From assembly GCA_016196125.1 (NCBI GenBank), contig JACPYG010000015.1, positions 22,966 through 86,965 of the forward strand: a stretch of DNA of 64,000 nucleotides, written 5' to 3'. Under the pieces are notes generated by a model. The model was given only the letters and a program-made list of their open reading frames with translations. It had not been told where the DNA came from and ran no database searches. Of this stretch, positions 410 through 60,103 are shown piece after piece (positions within the stretch are counted from its first letter, which is position 1; each line of letters begins with the position of its first letter). The DNA comes from Candidatus Staskawiczbacteria bacterium (GTDB lineage Bacteria; Patescibacteriota; Minisyncoccia; Minisyncoccales; Staskawiczbacteraceae). The translations under genes were made by a program, and so were the position numbers.

Positions 410-2059
410 TTATGATTTAAATTTTACTCTCCTTAAAAAGGCGGGAATTTCCCATTCTTCTTCTTGCAGAAGTCTTTTATCTTGTTCCAAAGCTTCAGCT
501 TTTTTAATCTCTAAGGCATTTCTTCTTATGGTCTTTTTGATTTTAACATTTACAGGTTCTGCAACAATTAACTTGCCGGATGTCTCTGCCGCAACTTGGT
601 TATTATTCAAGATATGATCAAGACTGATATCAGATAATGTATTTTTAGGCAATTTTTGGGCAATTCTTGCCTGCCTGCCGGCACCTGCCTGCCGGTAGGC
701 ACGGGGTAGGCCTTTGCCCTTAGTTTTATGGCCGAAGGTTTTTTTAACTTTTTGCTCTTTTTTAGCGACAACTTTTGCATCTGCTTTAATGACTTTTTTT
801 ATTGATTCATTTGTTTTTGACGGCCCTGTTATTAGAATAGTCGTTTTAATTTTATTTTTCGCTTTTACATCTTTTGAAATCCCAAAAATTATTTTTGCTT
901 TTGGATTTAATGCGGCGATAGATTTGCTTATTTTTTCCACTTCAATCATATTCAAGCCGGACCCGCCAGAAATATTAAATAAAATCTTCTCTGCTATAAA
1001 ATTGTTGTTTTGATATAAAGGATTGATGAGAATTTTTTCGACTGTTTCTTTAACTTTATCTTTGCCAGAGGCATTAACTGTATTCAAAAAAGCAGAATTT
1101 CCAGAGCCATCTAAGATTGTGCGAAGATCGGCAAAATCAATATTTATCAATCCAGGGTTATAAATTAAATCAATCAAGCTTTCCAAAGATTCTATAAGGC
1201 TTTTATTAACGGTAGAAAATGCTTCTGTTATAGATGTATCATTGCCGATAACCTTAAAAATTCTTTCGTTTGGAATAGTAATTGAAACATTTAAAGAACT
1301 TTTAAGTTCCTTTAAGGATTTTAGGGCTATTTTTGATTTATTTTTACCTTCAAACCTAAATGGAAGCGTAAATATGCCAAGCGTGATTCCGCCGAACAAT
1401 TTTGCGGATTCGGCAAAAACCTTAGTGGCTCCAGAACCCAATCCTCCGCCCAATGAAGCGATTAAAATTACAATATCCTGATCTTTAAAGAGTTCCGTAA
1501 TTTTTTCTTTTTCGGATTCTGCGGCTGTTCTGGCTATTTCCGGATTCACTCCGGTTCCTAAACCGTGAGTAAATTCCTTGCCAAACCAAAAATATTTAAT
1601 GCCTGTTTTCTTTTTTAAAGCTCTAATATCCGTATCTGCAATGACAAATGTCGCTTTATTTACTGTTCTGCCAATTTCAGAAACAATTGACCCGCCGCCT
1701 CCGCCAATTCCAACCACCTTAATTCTGGCGCGAAACAGAGCCTCTGCCGGGAAAGCCGATATATTTTCTTTTTTAATAATTTTGAGTTTTTTTAAAACTG
1801 CTTTCTTTTCCGATTTTATTATAGTTTTTTTCTTTACGTTTTTTTTGGGTTTAACAGGTGGCTTAATTGTTTTTTTAATATGTTTTCCCTTTTTCTTTTT
1901 TGGTTTAACTAAAACTCTCTTCGGAGATTTTACCTTTTTATTTTTTTTATTTGCCCGAATAAATAATTTTGATTTTGCCGAAATTACCGCTTTGCTGTAT
2001 TTAATCGGACGAACTATTGCTTTTTTCTTCATTATTTTTTTCGGCCTCTTGGTTGTCAT
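410..2059 (-). CDS. ftsZ: Cell-division GTPase FtsZ with a Lys-rich N-terminal extension of about 100 aa
   Basis: VVGIGGGGGSIV and GGGLGSGAT tubulin/FtsZ signatures; C-terminal EIPAFLRR anchor peptide. The only Met codons before the core are residues 1 and 10. Confidence 0.95.
   Translation of the reverse strand: MTTKRPKKIMKKKAIVRPIKYSKAVISAKSKLFIRANKKNKKVKSPKRVLVKPKKKKGKHIKKTIKPPVKPKKNVKKKTIIKSEKKAVLKKLKIIKKENISAFPAEALFRARIKVVGIGGGGGSIVSEIGRTVNKATFVIADTDIRALKKKTGIKYFWFGKEFTHGLGTGVNPEIARTAAESEKEKITELFKDQDIVILIASLGGGLGSGATKVFAESAKLFGGITLGIFTLPFRFEGKNKSKIALKSLKELKSSLNVSITIPNERIFKVIGNDTSITEAFSTVNKSLIESLESLIDLIYNPGLINIDFADLRTILDGSGNSAFLNTVNASGKDKVKETVEKILINPLYQNNNFIAEKILFNISGGSGLNMIEVEKISKSIAALNPKAKIIFGISKDVKAKNKIKTTILITGPSKTNESIKKVIKADAKVVAKKEQKVKKTFGHKTKGKGLPRAYRQAGAGRQARIAQKLPKNTLSDISLDHILNNNQVAAETSGKLIVAEPVNVKIKKTIRRNALEIKKAEALEQDKRLLQEEEWEIPAFLRRVKFKS
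668..704. repeat. Two tandem degenerate copies of the CTGCCGGCAG-centred GC palindrome, in frame in the FtsZ C-terminal linker
   Basis: TGCCTGCCTGCCGGCACCTGCCTGCCGGTAGGCA, read on the minus strand as RAYRQAGAGRQA. Confidence 0.8.
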
Positions 2060-6022: not shown

Positions 6023-6226
6023 ATTATTTTTTATTAGACCTGTTTCTTAATAATACATTACTATCTAATTTTATATCTTTTTACAATTTTTTTCAAATTA
6101 ATATCAATAAAAAAAACCTCTTCTGTTATGAAACAGATGAGGTTGATTTTTGTTGTACTTCTTTGCTTTGTTTATTTATTCTTATCCATTTATCGCCTTT
6201 CTTCACCAAAGAACAAAACCGTAATT

Positions 6227-6268
6227 TGGTGGGCCCAGAAGGAATCGGACCTTCTGCCTCTGTCTTAT
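6227..6268 (-). repeat. Orphan copy of the tRNA-Ile 3' half (anticodon position 35 to CCA), 41/42 identical to 6316-6357
   Basis: Direct comparison: TGGTGGGCCCAGAAGGAATCGGACCTTCTGCCTCTGTCTTAT versus ...CTTCTACCTC... in the full gene. Confidence 0.9.
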
Positions 6269-6315
6269 GAATCTGTTTTTACATATTTTTTATTTGAGCA
6301 AAGCTTCCATAACTT

Positions 6316-6390
6316 TGGTGGGCCCAGAAGGAATCGGACCTTCTACCTCTGTCTTATCAGGACAGCGTTCTACCAATGAACTATGGGCCC
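6316..6390 (-). tRNA. tRNA-Ile (anticodon GAU), CCA encoded
   Basis: Manual cloverleaf: GGGCCCA TA GTTC ATTGGTA GAAC G CTGTC CTGATAA GACAG AGGTA GAAGG TCCGATT CCTTC TGGGCCC A CCA. Leader and trailer form a further 12-bp perfect helix (6308-6319 / 6391-6402). Confidence 0.9.
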
Positions 6391-6405: not shown

Positions 6406-6438
6406 CAGGACAGCGTTCTACCAATGAACTATGGGCCC
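6406..6438 (-). repeat. Orphan copy of the tRNA-Ile 5' half (positions 1-34), 33/33 identical to 6358-6390
   Basis: CAGGACAGCGTTCTACCAATGAACTATGGGCCC occurs twice. Identity stops exactly at the first anticodon base. Confidence 0.9.
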
Positions 6439-13519: not shown

Positions 13520-14200
13520 TTAAATAATAAAACGGCCTTTTTTTTCATCTCTTACAACTTTTCCGTTTTCTATGGTAATAACCCGTTTCCCTAATTTATT
13601 TATTATTTCTCTGTCGTGAGTTGATAAAATAACTGTTTTACCGGCTTTATTTATTTTTTCTAAAAGAGAAATGACTTCATAAGTATTATAAGGGTCCAGA
13701 TTGCCGGTGGGCTCATCGGCCACAATAACGTCGGGATAATTAACCAAAGCCCTGGCAATTGCCAATCTTTGCTGTTCTCCTCCGGAAAGCTCATTGGGAA
13801 AATTATTAATTTTTTCTGAAAGCCCTATTATATCAAGAATCTTTGGTACTTCCCTGTCTATTTCTTCATTTTCTTTGCCCTCTACCGACAAGATGTAAGC
13901 AACATTTTCGTAAACAGTTTTTCCATAAAAAAGCCTGTAGTCCTGAAAAATGCTCCCTATTTTTCTTCGCATTTCTTGAAGTCTCTGGGCTGACGTTTCA
14001 TTTACATTTATATCCTGGAAATAAACCTCTCCCGATGTTGGAGTTTCGAATCCTAAAAGCAATCTGATTAAAGTTGTTTTGCCTGCTCCGGACTTGCCCA
14101 CAATAGAAACAAATTCTCCCTTTTCTACTTCAAAAGAAACATCTTGTAAAACAATCGTGTTTGGGGAATAAATTTTTGTAACATTTTTGAACCTAATCAT
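13520..14200 (-). CDS. ftsE: Cell-division ABC transporter ATPase FtsE
   Basis: GKSGAGKTT, LSGGEQQR, VIVADEPTGNLD. Confidence 0.9.
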   Translation of the reverse strand: MIRFKNVTKIYSPNTIVLQDVSFEVEKGEFVSIVGKSGAGKTTLIRLLLGFETPTSGEVYFQDINVNETSAQRLQEMRRKIGSIFQDYRLFYGKTVYENVAYILSVEGKENEEIDREVPKILDIIGLSEKINNFPNELSGGEQQRLAIARALVNYPDVIVADEPTGNLDPYNTYEVISLLEKINKAGKTVILSTHDREIINKLGKRVITIENGKVVRDEKKGRFII

Positions 14201-15300
14201 TTGATTTTATTTCCGCTTGTAAGAATTGGTCTAAATCTCCATTCAAAACCGCATCTGTATTCGAGGTCTCAACTTGAGTTCTTAAATCTTTTACTAATTT
14301 ATACGGGTGCAAAACATAAGACCTAATTTGATTTCCAAAGCCTGCTGAAATTGTATCGCCTTTTATTTCTTTCATCTCTTTTGCGCGCTGCAATTCTCCA
14401 AAGGCATAAAGCTTGGCATACAAAATCTTCATTGCGTTTTCCCTGTTTTTACCTTGTAATCTTTCTGATTGCGATGAAACGGCAATGCCTGTTTTCAAAT
14501 GAGTTATTCTTATTGCCGACTCTCTTTTATTAACATATTGGCCGCCGGGACCAGAAGCCCTAAATGTGTCTATTTTTAAATCATCTGGTTTTATTTCAAT
14601 TTTAACATCTCTTTCTTTAAGCTCCGGTAAAACCTCAACTAAAGCAAAAGAAGTGTGGCGAAGTTTTTGAGCCGAAAAAGGAGAAATTCTTACCAATCTA
14701 TGCACTCCTGTTTCTTTTTTTAAAATACCATAAGCATAACTTCCTTTTATTTCCAATGTTACTGATTTTATTCCTATTCTTCCTTCTGGCCCGCCTGCTT
14801 TTCCAAATGATTGGTGCAAAACAAATACTTCAAAACCTTTTTTAGAACAATATTTTTCATACATTCTCATAAGCATTGTCGCCCAATCTTGCGAATCCTG
14901 CCCACCTGCGCCAGAGGATATTTCTAAAATTGCATTATTTCTATCGTATTTTACGGAAAGAAAAGTTTTTGTTTCCTGTTTTTTAATATCATCTTCTAAT
15001 TGGTTATATTTTTCTTTTAACTCTAATAATATTGTTTCATCTCCTCCTGCTATTTTTTCAAGCTCCTTTATTTCATCTAACTCTTTTTTTATTTTTTCTA
15101 TATTTTCTATCTCTTCTTTTATGGCCGATATTTCCTGCTGTGTCTCCTTGGCATTTTCCGTGTCGCGCCAAAAATCGGGAGCGCTTGTTTTTTTTTCTAA
15201 AACTTTTAATCTTTTTTCTTTTTCTGCAACATCAAAGACGGTCCATCAAAAGATGGAGTTTATTTTCTAATTCTTCAATTTTACTGGTTTTTTCAGCCAT
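14193..15300 (-). CDS. prfB: Peptide chain release factor 2, expressed through a programmed +1 frameshift
   Basis: Frame 0 from ATG 15300: MAEKTSKIEELENKLHLLMDRL then TGA. The +1 frame continues DVAEKEKRLKVLEKKTSAPDFWRDTENAK... into the ORF-track fragment containing SPF and GGQ (GPGGQYVNK). Confidence 0.9.
15232..15237 (-). other. RF2 autoregulatory +1 frameshift site CTT TGA
   Basis: Minus strand reads CGT CTT TGA TGT; reading resumes at GAT GTT. Confidence 0.85.
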
Positions 15301-15426
15301 ATTATATTATTAATTCAATTTATCATAATTTTTAAAACAAAAAAAGACCCCTGGATAAAAATAAGGTTTTATAGTTTTTGAACCAGTGGTCGGATTTGAA
15401 TCGACTACCGGATTTTATCCCGTTAG

Positions 15427-15498
15427 AGCCGGAGGCGAGATTCGAACTCGCGACTTACTCTTTACGAAAGAGTTACTCTGCCTCTGAGTTACTCCGGC
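15427..15498 (-). tRNA. tRNA-Thr (anticodon CGU), no encoded CCA
   Basis: Manual cloverleaf: GCCGGAG TA ACTC AGAGGCA GAGT A ACTCT TTCGTAA AGAGT AAGTC GCGAG TTCGAAT CTCGC CTCCGGC T. Flanked by CCCGTTAGA / TCTAACGGG, which extends the acceptor helix. Confidence 0.85.
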
Positions 15499-15664
15499 TC
15501 TAACGGGGCAAGTGAAAAAGTTGCTCCCTGTCTACCGACAGGCAGGCGCCTATGAGATGCACTGGCACATAATGACTGCTTCTTTATTCCAATACTATCA
15601 CTGGAAACAGCAAAAATCAATTAGAAAATAATTACCCCACTCCTCAACTAACTATTGTTTTGCG

Positions 15665-24256: not shown

Positions 24257-25252
24257 TTACATCTCCATTAATAATATTTCTAAAGCCAGCTTTGGATTGG
24301 CATTAGTCAAAGAAATTTGCGCATTAATAATTTCCAATAATTTTAAAACTTCTTTAATTTTTGATATGGAATAATTCTTAAAATTATCTGCAGCTTCCGG
24401 AAAAAAATCTTTGGGAGTTAAATTATCCGCTCCTGTTTTTAAAAATAATAAATGCCTCAAATATCTTTGCAAAATTTCTAAAACTCTCTTTGTATTATTG
24501 CCATCCAAATTAATTTTTTTTGTGTATTGAAACTTCAGGGCAAGATTAGAATTAATAACTTTTACCAGTTCTTGCAGTGTTGTTTGCTCTTCTTTCAATT
24601 TATCCGGATTTAAAAATAATTCTATTGCTTGGCCTGGTTTACAGGAACAAAAAGATGCAAGATCATGCGCTATTTTTTCTTGCCTGCCGGCAGGCAGACT
24701 TTCTCCCATTTTTACCAAATTATATTCAATTTCTTTCGGGTCTACAAGATAAAATTTTATTCTTTGACACCTTGAAATTATCGTAGACAATAATGTTTCT
24801 GGATGCGGAGATATTAAAATTAAAATAGTTTTTCCTTTTGGCTCCTCAAGTGTTTTTAAAAGGCAACTCTGCGCCTCAAAATTCATTTTTTCAGCTCCAT
24901 TGACAATGACTGCCTTAAAAGAACCGTAATAAGATTTATAGCTTAAAAAAAGCAAAGCCTCTCTTATTTGTGAAATATCAATTTCCTGTTTATCATTTTT
25001 CAGGTTTACCATTAAAACATCAACATAGCTTTCATTTTCTATGTCTTTGCAATTTCTGCAAATTCCGCATGATTCTTGACCGGGGCTTTTGCCTGCCTCG
25101 GCAGACAAACAATTGATTAACTTTACAAATTCTTTTGCCAAAGTTCTCTTACCTATTTTCTCCTCTCCAGAAAACAAATAAGCATGAGCCAACTGGCCTG
25201 ATTCAAGCTTATTCTTTAAAAAATCCCATTGTTTTTTGTGACCGATTAACAT
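24257..25252 (-). CDS. holB: DNA polymerase III delta' subunit
   Basis: HAYLFSGEEKIGKRTLA, Cys cluster C..C..C and LLKTLEEP motifs. Confidence 0.85.
   Translation of the reverse strand: MLIGHKKQWDFLKNKLESGQLAHAYLFSGEEKIGKRTLAKEFVKLINCLSAEAGKSPGQESCGICRNCKDIENESYVDVLMVNLKNDKQEIDISQIREALLFLSYKSYYGSFKAVIVNGAEKMNFEAQSCLLKTLEEPKGKTILILISPHPETLLSTIISRCQRIKFYLVDPKEIEYNLVKMGESLPAGRQEKIAHDLASFCSCKPGQAIELFLNPDKLKEEQTTLQELVKVINSNLALKFQYTKKINLDGNNTKRVLEILQRYLRHLLFLKTGADNLTPKDFFPEAADNFKNYSISKIKEVLKLLEIINAQISLTNANPKLALEILLMEM
24681..24696. repeat. GC palindrome TGCCTGCCGGCAGGCA in frame in holB (SLPAGRQEK)
   Basis: Perfect 16-bp palindrome inside AT-rich coding sequence. Confidence 0.9.
25090..25107. repeat. 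Degenerate copy TGCCTGCCTCGGCAGACA in holB (LSAEAGKS)
   Basis: Same half-sites with a 2-nt centre insertion and one arm change. Confidence 0.5.
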
Positions 25253-36928: not shown

Positions 36929-37687
36929 TTATGCAACAGATTTAACAATTTTTAGAAATTTTTCTGCGTAAAGCGAAGCCCCGCCGACTAAAAGCCCGTT
37001 AGCCCCGGTATTTTTAATATAGAGAGCCGAGTTGTCTGAATCTACGCTGCCGCCATAAAGAACTTTCATATTATCGGCTATTTTTCTATTATACAATTTT
37101 AAAACAACTCTTCGTATAAATAAAATAGAACTCATCGTTTCGTCTTGTGAACAATTATTTCCGGACCCAATTGCCCAAATTGGCTCATAAGCAATAACAA
37201 TATTTTTTACTTCTTTTACGATAATGCCTTTTAAATCTTCTGTAATTTGCCTTTCTAAAACTTCAACTTTTTTGCCTGTCTTTTTTTCCTCATTAGTTTC
37301 ACCTATGCACAAAATCGGTTTTAATTTTTCGTGCAAGCATTCTTTTATTTTTTTATTGATAACGGTGTCTGTTTCGTTTAAATATTTTCTGGACTCTGAA
37401 TGGCCTATTATAACATATTTTACTTTTGAATCACGAAGCTGTGAAGCTGAAACCTCTCCGGTAAACGCGCCTTTTCCCCTTACCTGCCTGCCGGCAGGCA
37501 GGTAAAAAACATTCTGGGCGCCCAAAGTCAATCCTTCCAATAAGTTCAAATAAACAAAAGGCGGGCATATAACAACTTCAACCTTCTTTTCATTTTTTAA
37601 CCCTTTTTTTATTGCTTCAAAAAGAGCTTTGGCTTCTTTTTGATTGGCAGGATTCATTTTCCAGTTGGCAACAATAAGATTTTTCAT
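36929..37687 (-). CDS. tpiA: Triosephosphate isomerase
   Basis: ANWKMN, GAFTGEVS, IIGHSESR, AYEPIWAIGSG, GGASL. Confidence 0.95.
   Translation of the reverse strand: MKNLIVANWKMNPANQKEAKALFEAIKKGLKNEKKVEVVICPPFVYLNLLEGLTLGAQNVFYLPAGRQVRGKGAFTGEVSASQLRDSKVKYVIIGHSESRKYLNETDTVINKKIKECLHEKLKPILCIGETNEEKKTGKKVEVLERQITEDLKGIIVKEVKNIVIAYEPIWAIGSGNNCSQDETMSSILFIRRVVLKLYNRKIADNMKVLYGGSVDSDNSALYIKNTGANGLLVGGASLYAEKFLKIVKSVA
37482..37503. repeat. Perfect 22-bp palindrome ACCTGCCTGCCGGCAGGCAGGT in frame in tpiA (YLPAGRQV)
   Basis: Read directly from the sequence; the two halves are exact reverse complements. Confidence 0.95.
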
Positions 37688-42469: not shown

Positions 42470-42494
42470 AAAATTGTATTTATTTTTGGTTATA

Positions 42495-42610
42495 GCGGAA
42501 ATAAGGATATTTTTCAATTCGGGCTCGGGTCGCGAGAGCTTCCCGCTGTGCGGGAGCTCCCGACATAGGCCGTGGGTTTGGCGGGCGTTGAAAAATATCC
42601 TTATTTCCGC
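42495..42610. repeat. MITE-like hairpin element, 116-bp form with a nested 43-nt palindrome (rpsH-rplF spacer)
   Basis: 23-bp perfect arms GCGGAAATAAGGATATTTTTCAA / TTGAAAAATATCCTTATTTCCGC. Core TTCGGGCT[43 nt]GCCGTGGGTTTGGCGGGCG. Confidence 0.9.
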
Positions 42611-42619
42611 TTAATACTA

Positions 42620-43851: not shown

Positions 43852-43870
43852 ATTTTATAATCTCTTTTTT

Positions 43871-43944
43871 GCGGAAATAAGGATATTTTTCAATTCGGGC
43901 TGGCCGTGGGTTTGGCGGGCGTTGAAAAATATCCTTATTTCCGC
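43871..43944. repeat. MITE-like hairpin element, minimal 74-bp form (rplX-rplE spacer)
   Basis: Same 23-bp arms as 42495-42610; core TTCGGGCTGGCCGTGGGTTTGGCGGGCG without any nested palindrome. Confidence 0.9.
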
Positions 43945-43954
43945 ATAGATAACT

Positions 43955-47120: not shown

Positions 47121-47146
47121 TTTACTTTTTCCTCCTTTGAATTATA
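47121..47146. repeat. 26-bp perfect direct repeat, copy 2 (last 8 codons plus stop of rplB)
   Basis: Encodes FIIQRRKK* on the minus strand. Confidence 0.95.
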
Positions 47147-47970
47147 AACTTATTTGTCCACTTTTTTGTATTTCTTGTTTTTACCCCCAAGGCTGGTTTT
47201 CCCCATGGAGTTTTTGGATGTTTTAAACCAATTGGCTGTCTGCCCTCTCCTCCTCCATGCGGATGGTCAACTGGATTCATAGCCGAACCCCTAACATGAG
47301 GCCTTCTCCCTTTTAATCTTGATTTACCTGCCTTACCAACCCTATAATATCTGTTTTCTGGATTTGAAACCATTCCTATGGAAGCAAAGCACTCGCTTAT
47401 AAATTTTCTTACTTCGGTTGACGGCATTTTCAGGTTAACGTAATTTCCCTCCTGAGCTAAAACCTGAGCCGAAGATCCTGCAGATCTTACTAACTTTCCT
47501 CCTTTGCCAGGCTCTAATTCAATATTATAAACCATTGTTCCAACCGTTATATTTTTTAACTTTACTCTATTTCCTGGTTTTAAAGGAGCTTTCTCGGAAA
47601 ATATAATCTCATCTCCAACTTTCAGGTCTTGTGGCGCAATAATATATTGCCTATATTTGCTATGCCTGCCGGCAGGCATGCCTAAATATTCTATCAGAGC
47701 GATAAAGGCCGTTCTGTTTGGATCATATTCCAAAGCAACAACTCGGGCTGGCGAATCTATTCTTGTTTGTGAAAATTCAATCATTCTATAAAGTTTTTTT
47801 ACTCCGCCTCCTTTGTGTCTTACCGTAATCCTGCCAGAAGACTTCGATCTGCCAACATGTCTTTTTATATTTGCCAAAAGACTCTTTTCTGATTTATCTT
47901 TTGAAAGCAATGAAAAATCGATTCCTGTCATTCCTCTTCTGCCTGACGTTGTTGGTTTATAATGTTTCAT
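47122..47970 (-). CDS. rplB: 50S ribosomal protein L2
   Basis: EYDPNRTAFIAL ... GSAMNPVDHPHGGGEGR. Confidence 0.95.
   Translation of the reverse strand: MKHYKPTTSGRRGMTGIDFSLLSKDKSEKSLLANIKRHVGRSKSSGRITVRHKGGGVKKLYRMIEFSQTRIDSPARVVALEYDPNRTAFIALIEYLGMPAGRHSKYRQYIIAPQDLKVGDEIIFSEKAPLKPGNRVKLKNITVGTMVYNIELEPGKGGKLVRSAGSSAQVLAQEGNYVNLKMPSTEVRKFISECFASIGMVSNPENRYYRVGKAGKSRLKGRRPHVRGSAMNPVDHPHGGGEGRQPIGLKHPKTPWGKPALGVKTRNTKKWTNKFIIQRRKK
47662..47679. repeat. Perfect 18-bp palindrome ATGCCTGCCGGCAGGCAT in frame in rplB (GMPAGRHS)
   Basis: Read directly from the sequence. Confidence 0.95.
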
Positions 47971-49828: not shown

Positions 49829-50146
49829 TTATATTTTAATCGCAATATCAACTCCAGAAGGTAAATTCAAATCCCTTAGAGCTTCTATAATCTCTTGGTT
49901 CGGAGTTAATATATCAATCATTCTTTTATGTACCCTCATCTCAAACTGTTCTCTGGCGTTTTTATGAACAAAAGTCGATCTGTTTACGGTAAATTTTAAA
50001 ACTTCTGCAGGCAAAGGAACAGGACCTATCACTTCAACTCCATAACGATTTGCTATATCAATTATCTGCCTGGCCGAATTATCTATAATCTTATGATCAT
50101 AAGACCTAAGCTTTATCCTAAGTTTAGGTTTTACATCTTCAGACAT
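49829..50146 (-). CDS. rpsJ: 30S ribosomal protein S10
   Basis: KLRIKLRSYDHKIIDNSARQI. Start placed at MSEDVKPK (ATG 50146, preceded by GAAGGAAAG). The ORF stays open to 50266, which would add 40 aa including MPAGRQ. Confidence 0.9.
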   Translation of the reverse strand: MSEDVKPKLRIKLRSYDHKIIDNSARQIIDIANRYGVEVIGPVPLPAEVLKFTVNRSTFVHKNAREQFEMRVHKRMIDILTPNQEIIEALRDLNLPSGVDIAIKI

Positions 50147-50208
50147 ATTCTTTCCTTCTTCTAGAAGAATATTTGCTTTAATACCCGTTTCTTTAGATGG
50201 CTTTTTTA

Positions 50209-50230
50209 CTGCCTGCCTGCCGGCAGGCAT
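50209..50230. repeat. GC palindrome CTGCCTGCCTGCCGGCAGGCAT in the tuf-rpsJ leader (or the rpsJ N-extension)
   Basis: The core TGCCTGCCGGCAGGCA at 50214-50229 is a perfect palindrome. Confidence 0.9.
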
Positions 50231-50301
50231 TGCTTTCTTTCGAATTGCTGGTTTCTTGACTGGCATCTTATGATTTTATGAACGAAGTGAATAATATCAT
50301 G

Positions 50302-55517: not shown

Positions 55518-55615
55518 AAGTGGAAATAATAATATTTTTCAACGTCCGCCCTGCCTGCCGGCAGGCAGGCAAACCCACGGCCAGCCCGAATTGAAAAATA
55601 TTATTATTTCCACTT
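55518..55615. repeat. MITE-like hairpin element with the nested 20-bp palindrome (upstream of rpmB)
   Basis: 25-bp perfect arms AAGTGGAAATAATAATATTTTTCAA / TTGAAAAATATTATTATTTCCACTT. Core CGTCCGCC CCTGCCTGCCGGCAGGCAGG CAAACCCACGGCCAGCCCGAA. Confidence 0.9.
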
Positions 55616-56195: not shown

Positions 56196-56206
56196 AGCTA
56201 TGATAA

Positions 56207-56306
56207 GGTCAGAAAATAAAAATATTTTTCAACGCCCGCCCTGCCTGCCGGCAGGCAGGCAAACCCACGACCAGCCCGAATTGAAAAATATTTTTATTTT
56301 CTGACC
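56207..56306. repeat. MITE-like hairpin element with the nested 20-bp palindrome (yraN-comM spacer)
   Basis: 26-bp perfect arms GGTCAGAAAATAAAAATATTTTTCAA / TTGAAAAATATTTTTATTTTCTGACC. Core identical to 55543-55590 except for 2 nt. Confidence 0.9.
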
Positions 56307-56311
56307 TAAAT

Positions 56312-59005: not shown

Positions 59006-60103
59006 TTAAATACCGAGGGCTTTGACTAATTGTTTTATTAAAGAAACCACAACTGGCGGCGGCATTAGGCTGTTTGAAACAACGCCTTGGTCATCTAAAA
59101 CTTCCCAAGGTTTTTCATTGGCTTTGACTTTACTTCCGCCAGCTGGCGGATTTTCATTAAATGTATAACTGTACTCTGGAGTAATTTCATAATCATCAAC
59201 AAAATCTTTAACTATTTGCACTGGAATGCAATTTCTTAAAAAAACTTTTGGTATGCCCTGCAGGGACTCCGCTTGTTTTATTAAAAGCTCGTCTTTATTT
59301 AGCCTTTCTCTAATTGGTTCAATGCCTAATTCATCACCCTCTTTTGTTGTCATTCTAAAACCCTTGCAATTTGGATTATCGCAAATTAGATAAAATTTAT
59401 CATCCTTTGCGTCATATTCAACATTTTTTGTCGGCAAAAGCTTTAAGCTCCTTGATGTTTGGCAAGAAGGGCAAATTACCCTGTACTTTACTCTCTGGTC
59501 AATAACTGATGTCGGAACATCTATTAAAACAAAAATATCCGGGTCTTCTCTGTATCCAATTAAATCCCTAAAAAACAACGAATAAGAAATTTGATCCAAA
59601 TCCCTCGGAAAGCCATCAATAAAAATCGCTTTCCTGCCAAGCTTTGCTATTTCTCTTTTAGCTAATACTAGAATCAACTCGGAAGGCAAAAGAGTCTTTG
59701 TAGACCTTGCCTTTAAAGATTTAATTATGTCTTCTAATGGCAAATATCCCCTGTAATTATTCTCTAAAAAAACAACGAGTTCCTTTGTTTTATCTTCGTC
59801 GCCGATAATTTCATCAAATGACCTTACCATATCTCCAATGGAAAAATGGGCGATTTTATCACCACCAACCGCTTCGGCCAGCATTTTTGCATAAGTTCCT
59901 TTGCCAGAACCTTTTTTACCAAGCAAATAAGCCACGAATGTATTATTTTTGCTCTCTTCTCGGGAATTAACTCCCAAATATTCTCTTAATTTTTTAAGTT
60001 CAGGGCCTGCTTTATATTCAAAATAAGCCTGCCTTTGATTGAAATCAGTCAGGTCAAATTTTTTATAAACATCGCTTTTTGTTTTAAATATAGGAAAATC
60101 CAT
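59006..60103 (-). CDS. Adenylate/nucleoside-monophosphate kinase-like protein with long N- and C-terminal extensions
   Basis: P-loop GKKGSGKGTYAK and a Cys4 LID (CPSCQ...CDNPNCKG). Confidence 0.6.
   Translation of the reverse strand: MDFPIFKTKSDVYKKFDLTDFNQRQAYFEYKAGPELKKLREYLGVNSREESKNNTFVAYLLGKKGSGKGTYAKMLAEAVGGDKIAHFSIGDMVRSFDEIIGDEDKTKELVVFLENNYRGYLPLEDIIKSLKARSTKTLLPSELILVLAKREIAKLGRKAIFIDGFPRDLDQISYSLFFRDLIGYREDPDIFVLIDVPTSVIDQRVKYRVICPSCQTSRSLKLLPTKNVEYDAKDDKFYLICDNPNCKGFRMTTKEGDELGIEPIRERLNKDELLIKQAESLQGIPKVFLRNCIPVQIVKDFVDDYEITPEYSYTFNENPPAGGSKVKANEKPWEVLDDQGVVSNSLMPPPVVVSLIKQLVKALGI
59135..59150. repeat. Perfect 16-bp palindrome TCCGCCAGCTGGCGGA in frame (NPPAGGSK)
   Basis: Read directly from the sequence. 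Confidence 0.9.

Follow-up and report, generated by a model that had tools for sequence, protein, structure and literature searches.

The 64,000-nt stretch analyzed here, from the genome of a tiny groundwater bacterium of the Candidatus Staskawiczbacteria, which we refer to in its full length as the window, has a GC content of 32–40% and carries nearly all of its genes on the minus strand. One of these, tpiA (positions 36929–37687, minus strand), contains within its coding sequence a perfect, GC-rich (80%) palindrome of 20 bases, CCTGCCTGCCGGCAGGCAGG (37483–37502), which recurs in the window in both coding and noncoding DNA. As a single strand, this 20-mer is predicted to fold into an 8-bp stem with a CCGG loop (−8 kcal/mol). 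An earlier examination of the bare sequence, the original prediction, had listed the palindrome at eight loci, mostly in frame inside essential genes, and had proposed that it is moved or copied as a unit. The identities of the host genes ftsZ, holB, tpiA, rplB, and rpsJ were confirmed with Pfam, and the open reading frames (ORFs) continue through the coding copies.

The tpiA copy is read as Y-LPAGRQ-V, and its self-complementarity extends to a perfect 26-mer, TTACCTGCCTGCCGGCAGGCAGGTAA (37480–37505), longer than the 22-mer first proposed. A decayed copy matching 17 of 20 positions (47661–47680) resides in rplB (47122–47970, minus strand), where it is read as GMPAGRH and includes, as predicted, a perfect 18-mer (47662–47679). 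In holB (24257–25252, minus strand), an 18/20 copy read as SLPAGRQ lies directly after the δ′ domain (24679–24698) and is identical in two other assemblies, and a degenerate 21-nt derivative, TTGTCTGCCGAGGCAGGCAA on the gene strand, is read as LSAEAGK (25090–25110). Two abutting copies, one partial (666–683) and one matching at 18/20 positions (684–703), occupy positions 666–707 in the C-terminal linker of ftsZ (410–2059, minus strand), corresponding to amino acids 451–465 and past the FtsZ_C domain (323–412); the ftsZ and holB copies both fall outside Pfam domains. Between tuf and rpsJ, a copy with one additional TGCC unit, ACTGCCTGCCTGCCGGCAGGCATT (50208–50231), is found inside an extension of the rpsJ ORF. 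Because the likely start codon is the ATG at 50146, which is preceded by a good Shine-Dalgarno sequence (GAAGGAAAG), and because the copy is upstream of it, this copy is probably part of the untranslated 5′ leader. Two further perfect 20-mers are situated in the loops of hairpin repeats (55550–55569 in the repeat at 55518–55615, and 56240–56259 in the repeat at 56206–56307). Finally, a variant, CCTGTCTACCGACAGGCAGG (15527–15546), occurs approximately 30 nt upstream of a tRNA gene (15427–15498, minus strand) and is of the same type as the variant found in the TpiA insert of Parcubacteria GWA2_33_14, which is described below.

These occurrences far exceed what composition would produce. A search of the window with the pattern CTGCCTGCCGGCAGGCAG, allowing up to 3 mismatches, returned 11 matches including overlaps, compared with 0.00 in 100 dinucleotide-preserving shuffles, and the 12-mer core CCTGCCGGCAGG was found with no more than 1 mismatch at positions 688, 24683, 37487, 47665, 50216, 55554, and 56244. 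Perfect GC-rich palindromes of at least 12 nt number 8 in the window versus 0.8 in Markov shuffles. Each of the eight loci in the original prediction carries the palindrome or a close derivative, where 0 are expected, although the sequence at 25090–25110 is merely a degenerate derivative; likewise, placement within genes holds for the copies in ftsZ, holB, tpiA, and rplB, but probably not for that near rpsJ. A search of the window against Rfam identified four tRNAs only, with no match for either the palindrome or the hairpin repeat.

The hairpin repeats that harbor two of the perfect copies represent a family of elements about 70–100 nt in length with a strongly conserved 28-nt loop, CGCCCGCCAAACCCACGGCCAGCCCGAA. 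Four copies of this family are present in the window, two of which are filled and two of which are empty (GCCCGC/CAAACC, with the slash marking the insertion point), and the filled and empty forms differ by exactly 20 nt with no duplication. The empty paralogues, both on the minus strand, are located at 43866–43947, as revealed by alignment to the filled copies, and at 42494–42613, where a different 42-nt GC-rich hairpin is inserted elsewhere in the loop. Beyond the window, members of the family occur on groundwater metagenome contigs of the candidate phyla radiation (CPR), and a metagenome scan for the conserved arm yielded 61 distinct members, 60 of them empty and one filled at the same position (L280; L-numbers designate fetched loci used for comparison). 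An unrelated hairpin family on a phage contig (L025) has the empty form CCCATCCTTGC-GGTTTTTG-CAAGGGTGGG (TTTTTG/CAAGGG), and in one of its copies the 20-mer lies between the loop and the 3′ stem, again adding exactly 20 nt with no duplication. Thus, as had been noted, the palindrome is present in some copies of a larger repeat and absent from others.

The hairpin repeats have features of their own. Their outer stem exhibits compensatory changes between copies, and they occur in both orientations relative to genes; this family could be a MITE-like element, a structured RNA, or a terminator. The 42-nt insert, an imperfect GC-rich hairpin (TATGTCGGGAGCTCCCGCACAGCGGGAAGCTCTCGCGACCCG, 42526–42567) at another position of the same repeat, recurs with variations in metagenome copies (L196, L203, and L208) and looks like a third small nested GC-rich element.

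Comparable pairs of filled and empty sites are found in genes. The closest homologues of the window TpiA, which are 80–82% identical outside the insert, read NVFY-KEKGAF where the window protein reads NVFY-LPAGRQV-RGKGAF, a net gain of 21 nt that is missing from the closest orthologues (L165, L166, L169, and L170). For ribosomal protein L2, the syntenic orthologue in L170 reads EYF-DKE-RQY versus EYLGMPAGRHSKYRQY in the window, a difference of 7 amino acids (net +21 nt), and the L2_N domain recognized by Pfam accordingly spans 84 amino acids in the window versus 77 model positions. At least 40 HolB homologues read GA-KEKIAH versus GESLPAGRQEKIAH in the window, a difference of 6 amino acids (net +18 nt). 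In a metagenome-assembled genome assigned to Shapirobacteria by its closest named homologues (L148), GatB reads DD-LPAGRQV-VYT, compared with DD-GQT-VYT in a relative with 94% identity (net +12 nt). Together with the hairpin repeats, the empty TpiA, L2, and HolB sites support the proposal that the palindrome is moved or copied as a unit, and they indicate that the similarity among these proteins derives from an identical DNA unit rather than from a conserved peptide.

Each of these net coding changes corresponds to 20 nt plus a small indel beside the insert, several of which occur in A-rich runs, with +1, +1, −2, and −8 nt of target bases gained or lost. Because the net changes (+21, +21, +18, and +12) are all multiples of three and never 20, the in-frame state can be attributed to selection and not to the length of the unit. 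The original prediction of a loop 6–7 amino acids longer in TpiA and L2 is upheld (+21 nt and +7 amino acids, respectively), and HolB has gained 6 amino acids, while the unit itself is exactly 20 bp and the reading frame is maintained via extra indels. In TpiA, the same nucleotide has been filled in two non-sister lineages, the second of which carries the variant CCTGTCGGCAGACAGGCAGG. In the TpiA gene of Parcubacteria GWA2_33_14, the codons GTA AAG AAA that follow the insert correspond to the sequence of the empty site, TATAAAGAAAA, with the frame displaced by one base. The window copy is still perfect, whereas the same-site copy in the other lineage has decayed. An AlphaFold2 model of TpiA (predicted local distance difference test score of 90) places the insert in a lower-confidence, unstructured coil (residues 62–79), which we take to be loop 3 of the TIM barrel on the basis of its position between β3 and α3. 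The holB derivative at 25090–25110 is located in a hypervariable loop between NC and CGxCxxC; a decayed form, LSAQAGL, is common to other Staskawiczbacteria and is missing from one homologue (P0242/L294).

Two other accounts of the coding copies were considered and rejected. An ancestral peptide is inconsistent with the lack of the insert in at least 100 TpiA and at least 40 HolB homologues, and distant orthologues do not carry PAGRQ in unrelated codons. A hidden gene interruption removed by translational bypass or splicing is likewise disfavored, as in silico deletion of the 20 nt usually breaks ORFs rather than restoring them.

Two of these genes exhibit further peculiarities. In Parcubacteria GWA2_33_14 (L167/L168, 7847–9632), a diversity-generating retroelement consisting of a reverse transcriptase and bAvd, along with a GIY-YIG gene, resides immediately upstream of the tpiA gene bearing the decayed palindrome. 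The HolB loop between NC and CGxCxxC (approximately 25090–25130 in the window) is hypervariable among Staskawiczbacteria, and some homologues (P0246, P0249, and P0263) contain (P)RLRQG(F/Y)GGQA at this location. The peptide is encoded by a further GC-rich repeat, CTTCGCCAAGGCTTCGGCGGGCAGGCC, which phage contig L025 (3021–3100) contains as well, and the loop has apparently been struck repeatedly by different GC-rich elements.

The 20-mer is also found in frame in genes beyond the window, GatB and FtsK among them, and one reading frame predominates. Eleven of the 13 copies in genes identified by Pfam are read as LPAGRQ, for which our binomial calculation gives a chance probability of <1e-3. These copies reside in TpiA, L2, HolB (twice), the partial FtsZ copy, GatB, and FtsK, as well as in a dehydratase, a PMT_2 glycosyltransferase, a BNR protein, and an AAA_24 protein. 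The two copies in another frame are the full FtsZ copy (RAYRQAG) and one in an HsdS/GIY-YIG fusion. A single frame for every coding case had been proposed, and this holds for tpiA, rplB, holB, and the partial ftsZ copy, all of which include PAGR, but not for the full ftsZ copy. The remaining two frames both contain cysteine (PACRQAG and CLPAGR), and selection on the peptide would be the simplest reason for the LPAGRQ preference. At one end of a viral contig (L043, 3916–4142), 11 tandem repeats are found of a 21-nt unit, CCATGCCTACCGGCAGGCAGG, which equals the palindrome with 1 nt added and 2 mismatches; the array is in frame as (LPAGRHG)n at the N terminus of an ORF.

The form of the unit is invariant to an unusual degree: 163 of 164 exact sites conform to (CCTG)2CCGG(CAGG)2. 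This unit of exactly 20 bp enters DNA without target-site duplication. Among 162 unique sites used for target analysis, no duplication beyond chance was detected, and apparent 7-nt duplications proved to be pre-existing tandem repeats. The flanking nucleotides are strongly non-random, in that the pairs A/T (40 versus 12 expected), C/C (19 versus ~8.5), and G/G (20 versus ~10.5) are overrepresented. The sites disfavor T at −1 and A at +1, A occupies −1 in 41% of them, and GA precedes the insertion point in 25% versus 12%. A perfect flanking stem of at least 6 nt is present at 9.9% of sites versus 2.8% (p = 3.5e-5), and a flanking direct repeat of at least 6 nt at 7.4% of sites versus 1.4% of controls (p = 1e-5), many of the latter being arrays of 7–9-nt tandem repeats. 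Evaluation of general hairpin context by minimum free energy, a test too blunt for this purpose, revealed no enrichment, whereas the stricter test for perfect stems at the junction did. Copies nested within the palindrome itself occur at CCG/G in L062, L086, and L065; five copies lie at the same place in tRNA D-arms, between the loop and the 3′ stem; and two occupy a phage tRNA-Met variable loop, with ARAGORN still calling one of the two as a 92-nt tRNA. The unit is thus placed preferentially where DNA can become unpaired: the loops of hairpin repeats, the junction of the tRNA D-loop and 3′ stem, 7–9-nt tandem repeats, and the tip of the palindrome's own hairpin.

The association with tRNAs does not reflect an intron, since a canonical tRNA was recovered in only 2 of 167 cases when the 20 nt were deleted, and several of the D-loop cases are tRNA fragments. 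Partial 5′ halves of tRNAs form the context of the copies in L041, L059, L081, and L143. In the window, a tRNA gene at 6319–6390 (minus strand) has copies of its two halves on either side, with 6225–6268 repeating 6314–6357 (98%) and 6406–6438 repeating 6358–6390 (100%).

The palindrome is a repeated unit in the window, as predicted, and its occurrence extends well beyond this genome and its phylum. The window matches a Ca. Staskawiczbacteria metagenome-assembled genome in which HolB is 100% identical. A scan of one genome per GTDB species (596 Gb) for the exact 20-mer, for which the counts are lower bounds, located it in at least 120 loci, whereas we calculate that ~0.5 would be expected in 596 Gb at equal base frequencies. 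The same 20-mer exists in many phyla and in phages. The matches listed include bacteria labelled as about nine phyla; among the 80 titles listed, 24 are Patescibacteria of many classes and 22 are Bacteroidota, and others are Omnitrophota, Planctomycetota, Gammaproteobacteria, Bdellovibrionales, 'delta proteobacteria', Thermodesulfovibrionales, and Chloroflexi. Several genome matches are on contigs of 0.36–4.4 Mb. The carriers range in GC content from 30 to 72% and include long-read assemblies and isolate genomes, among the latter the cultured Bacteroidota Winogradskyella echinorum KCTC 22026, Flagellimonas yonaguniensis, Longitalea luteola, and Flavivirga. In viral contigs, the 16-nt core was matched 55 times in 44 stretches, with 42 of the 55 matches extending to the exact CCTGCCTGCCGGCAGGCAGG; terminase and portal genes mark some of these contigs as true phages, and several of the contigs are interrelated. 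No perfect copy was found in curated phage (2.3 Gb) or plasmid (7.3 Gb) records. The density in the window, 8 copies in 64 kb, is ~35-fold greater than in fetched loci chosen blind to the palindrome (3 copies in 842 kb). A burst has thus taken place in this Ca. Staskawiczbacteria genome, and copies afterwards decay by point mutation; one orthologous copy, although decayed, has stayed in frame in 23 contigs (JGI, NCBI, and ENA).

From these observations, we conclude that the 20-bp palindrome is real, non-random, and inserted, that it is very probably mobile, and that its host range is wide; it may rank among the smallest known mobile DNA elements. The explanation we favor, with a probability of roughly 60%, is that it represents a non-autonomous insertion element of 20 bp, perfectly self-complementary and directed to unpaired DNA. 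Such an element would be mobilized in trans by an enzyme that recognizes the single-stranded DNA hairpin and inserts it by joining into loops that are exposed, for which the nearest precedents, by analogy with REP/RAYT and IS200/IS605, might be HUH/RAYT-like or other structure-specific nuclease-ligase enzymes. Spread between lineages would be horizontal, possibly via phages. Within genes, a 20-nt insert would shift the reading frame, and the surviving events would be those accompanied by a nearby compensating indel in a tolerant surface loop or linker, with selection then favoring the cysteine-free LPAGRQ frame. The element itself probably would have no host function.

Several points weigh against an insertion element of this kind. 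No mobilizing enzyme was recognized by Pfam in the 64-kb window, which contains housekeeping genes only, and an all-against-all search of the ORFs near 164 sites revealed no transposase-like family; the only recurrent close neighbors are ParB-domain proteins, which constitute a weak lead. To our knowledge, 20 bp is shorter than any element that has been experimentally shown to transpose. Furthermore, coding copies never appear as a bare gain of 20 nt, and each requires at least two changes or one imprecise event. The copy in L148 (at 2824) is associated with a 66-nt rearrangement containing a duplicated gene end, which resembles break repair more than clean transposition. The target preference is weak at the sequence level, and the genomic distribution draws on lower bounds (at least 120 loci) and on the taxonomy of the matches listed.

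The main rival explanation, albeit an unlikely one, is that the palindrome is a scar of break repair. A structure-specific nuclease would cut hairpin tips or slipped repeats, and the resulting 3′ ends would each receive a templated tail, CCTGCCTGCC-GG, and pair via CCGG to leave a palindromic filler. A sequence followed by its own reverse complement is what two identically tailed ends might be expected to produce, and the enrichment of sites at fragile structures fits this scheme, as do the variable loss and gain of target bases in coding copies (+1, +1, −2, and −8 nt) and the location of the L148 copy at a 66-nt duplication junction. Tailing should yield products of variable length, however, whereas the length is exactly 20 nt in 163 of 164 sites, and the insertions in noncoding hairpins are clean, with no target bases lost. 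In addition, the within-genome burst and self-nesting are more typical of a self-copying element, and we know of no bacterial enzyme that adds a defined tail of 10–12 nt. Regarding the L148 locus itself (2780–2880, compared with L291, 5440–5720), the perfect copy lies just after gatB and is bracketed by two directly repeated, diverged copies of the final ~45 nt of that gene, with short inverted homology in its flanks; the whole 66 nt are missing in a relative with 88% nucleotide identity, and this site may mark a recombination or break-repair junction.

It is considerably less probable that the palindrome is a functional motif under selection, such as a binding or modification site for a ParB-like or methyltransferase protein (with GCCGGC or CCGG at its center) or an RNA hairpin signal, that has originated recurrently by a mutational ratchet of the HIP1 type. 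A link between HIP-type palindromes and methyltransferases has been reported (Elhai, 2015, cited in PMC5861425), and genes for ParB or ParB-domain proteins are no more than 200 nt from the palindrome at four loci (L045, 2446–3539; L092, 7455–8000; L031, 1417–3471; and L017, 1–1157). The perfection of the window TpiA copy, when the same-site copy in another lineage has decayed, could also be interpreted in this manner. A ratchet would alter sites by substitution, yet what separates filled from empty sites is a clean 20-nt indel. Moreover, most copies decay, the ParB association is reduced to two chromosomal cases, and the distribution of copies among essential coding sequences, tRNA genes, and other repeats follows no common positional logic. 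The phage proteins combine ParB_N and an N6/N4 DNA methylase in a single fusion; ParB proximity may be due to chance or may hint at a protein that recognizes the site.

The 20-mer can formally be divided into two abutted 10-bp inverted ends, CCTGCCTGCC and GGCAGGCAGG, and eukaryotic cut-and-paste elements leave footprints derived from their ends. A larger transposon with such termini could in principle leave the palindrome as an excision footprint or as solo terminal repeats, which we regard as very doubtful. In 2.16 Mb of fetched loci, isolated half-sites were all point-mutated full copies, and no pair bracketed a gene-sized segment. No target duplication accompanies the 20-mer, and footprints are normally heterogeneous in length.

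A sequencing or assembly artefact, such as a palindromic adaptor or a chimera junction, would be suggested by an identical 20-mer in unrelated genomes of 30–72% GC, which resembles a technical contaminant, but is effectively refuted by the preservation of reading frames through the 20-mer in essential genes, by the existence of mutated and orthologously decayed copies, by its presence in isolates, long-read assemblies, and data from different centers and assemblers, and by the lack of a perfect copy in curated phage and plasmid records totaling 9.6 Gb, a result at odds with a common library artefact.

A sister family of similarly tiny palindromic inserts probably exists. An adenylate-kinase-like gene (59006–60103, minus strand) contains at 59135–59150 another perfect palindrome, TCCGCCAGCTGGCGGA, which is unrelated to the first and is read in frame as NPPAGGS. 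This 16-mer was found at 10 sites in 9 other fetched loci that had not been selected for it (L055, L059, L060, L076, L084, L152, L154, L247, and L264), and in 55 stretches of viral contigs (L299–L353), in some cases at the tips of flanking inverted repeats. Elsewhere in the window (14193–15313), a release-factor ORF (14193–14876) covers the PCRF domain in its C-terminal part only; the missing N-terminal part presumably lies upstream in another frame, as expected for the programmed frameshift of prfB.

A broader proposal, to which we would assign somewhat less than even odds and which we advance tentatively, is that the palindrome is the smallest mobile element yet recognized and is pan-bacterial, being identical from Patescibacteria to Bacteroidota, Planctomycetota, and phages. 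A horizontally shared, hairpin-specific cutting and joining activity would place it in unpaired loops, among them those of tRNA D-arms, other repeats, and the palindrome itself. The palindrome and its sisters, for example TCCGCCAGCTGGCGGA, would keep adding short peptide loops to the essential proteins of reduced genomes. If the palindrome truly moves, the known size limit of mobile DNA would be lowered, and either an enzyme or a self-templated mechanism would have to be common to very distant bacteria and phages. Its insertion would provide streamlined CPR genomes with a route to new surface loops in essential, conserved proteins (TIM, L2, the clamp-loader subunit δ′, GatB, and FtsK) and would explain odd LPAGRQ-type insertions in metagenome-derived proteins. 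The element would also mark DNA that is unpaired in vivo, including hairpin loops, slipped repeats, and the D-arms of tRNA genes. Because cultured Bacteroidota carry the 20-mer, the question is open to experiment.

A search of 8 million papers by sequence and by concept revealed no description of this palindrome, in agreement with the original prediction; its separation from the SDR elements of cyanobacteria is based on their description only. The resemblance to Rickettsia palindromic elements (RPEs) that had been pointed out extends to in-frame insertion into coding genes, but by analogy the closest behavior appears to be that of the SDRs of Nostocaceae, with the GC clusters of yeast mitochondria also close. 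RPEs are palindromic, genus-restricted elements of about 100–150 bp that are inserted in frame at tolerated surface positions and translated. In-frame behavior alone is shared, as the 20-mer is far shorter and is found across phyla. Unlike MITEs, the 20-mer generates no target-site duplication of fixed length, and its empty and filled sites differ by exactly 20 nt. IS200/IS605 elements and PATEs undergo hairpin-guided, single-strand transposition without target duplication and with the possibility of seamless excision. Insertion without target duplication is a property that the 20-mer has in common with them. IS200/IS605 elements are at least 100 nt in length, have two different subterminal hairpins, and insert 3′ of a defined tetra- or pentanucleotide, whereas the 20-mer is a single perfect palindrome whose flank preference is weak (A/T, or A or C followed by GA before the insertion point), even though TpiA was hit twice at the same nucleotide. 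HIP1, an 8-nt motif enriched by substitution bias, differs in that the filled and empty sites of the 20-mer are distinguished by a 20-nt indel.

The REP/RAYT system offers a mechanistic precedent for the mobilization proposed above. REPs and REPINs are described as 20–40-bp palindromes that form GC-rich hairpins at high copy number and that are thought to be moved in trans by RAYT, a hairpin-specific HUH enzyme, and REPs as imperfect, extragenic palindromes with a GTAG or CGTC head that are specific to a species or genus (PMC3733652; PMC3116915). The 20-mer, by contrast, is a perfect palindrome starting with CCTG, has no GTAG or CGTC head in any of 162 sites, and is in frame in four window genes and several elsewhere. 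The 64 kb of the window contain no RAYT (TnpA-like) gene. Conserved GC-rich PstI palindromes flank tRNA genes in Neurospora mitochondria (Yin et al., 1981, as summarized in PMC8811140). These are likewise short, conserved, GC-rich, and tRNA-associated in AT-rich DNA, but they are organellar and intergenic and are not shown in frame inside genes.

Yeast mitochondrial GC clusters are longer than 20 bp. They are nonetheless short, GC-rich palindromic sequences in an AT-rich genome that are regarded as transposable; they include in-frame insertions in var1, form tandem arrays, merge, undergo rapid substitution, and are flanked by AG or TAG repeats taken to be target duplications (PMC8811140). An 80% GC element in a window of 32–40% GC, with in-frame copies where orthologues are empty, presents a similar picture. 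In contrast to GC clusters, which are organellar and heterogeneous, the 20-mer has no terminal repeats, is fixed at 20 bp, and resides in bacterial and phage hosts. The SDR1–8 repeats of Nostocaceae, attributed to Elhai and colleagues in 2008, are said to be hairpin repeats of 21–27 nt that have been proposed to be mobile, and they reportedly often occur in tandem heptamer repeats, nest in themselves and in other small elements, and encode no enzyme. The heptamer context, self-nesting, and insertion into other repeats are all observed for the 20-mer as well, which is just below the SDR size range. SDRs are reported only from the Nostocaceae lineage (PMC5861425). Unlike SDRs, the 20-mer is identical across about nine phyla and phages, is a perfect palindrome, and is translated inside essential genes.

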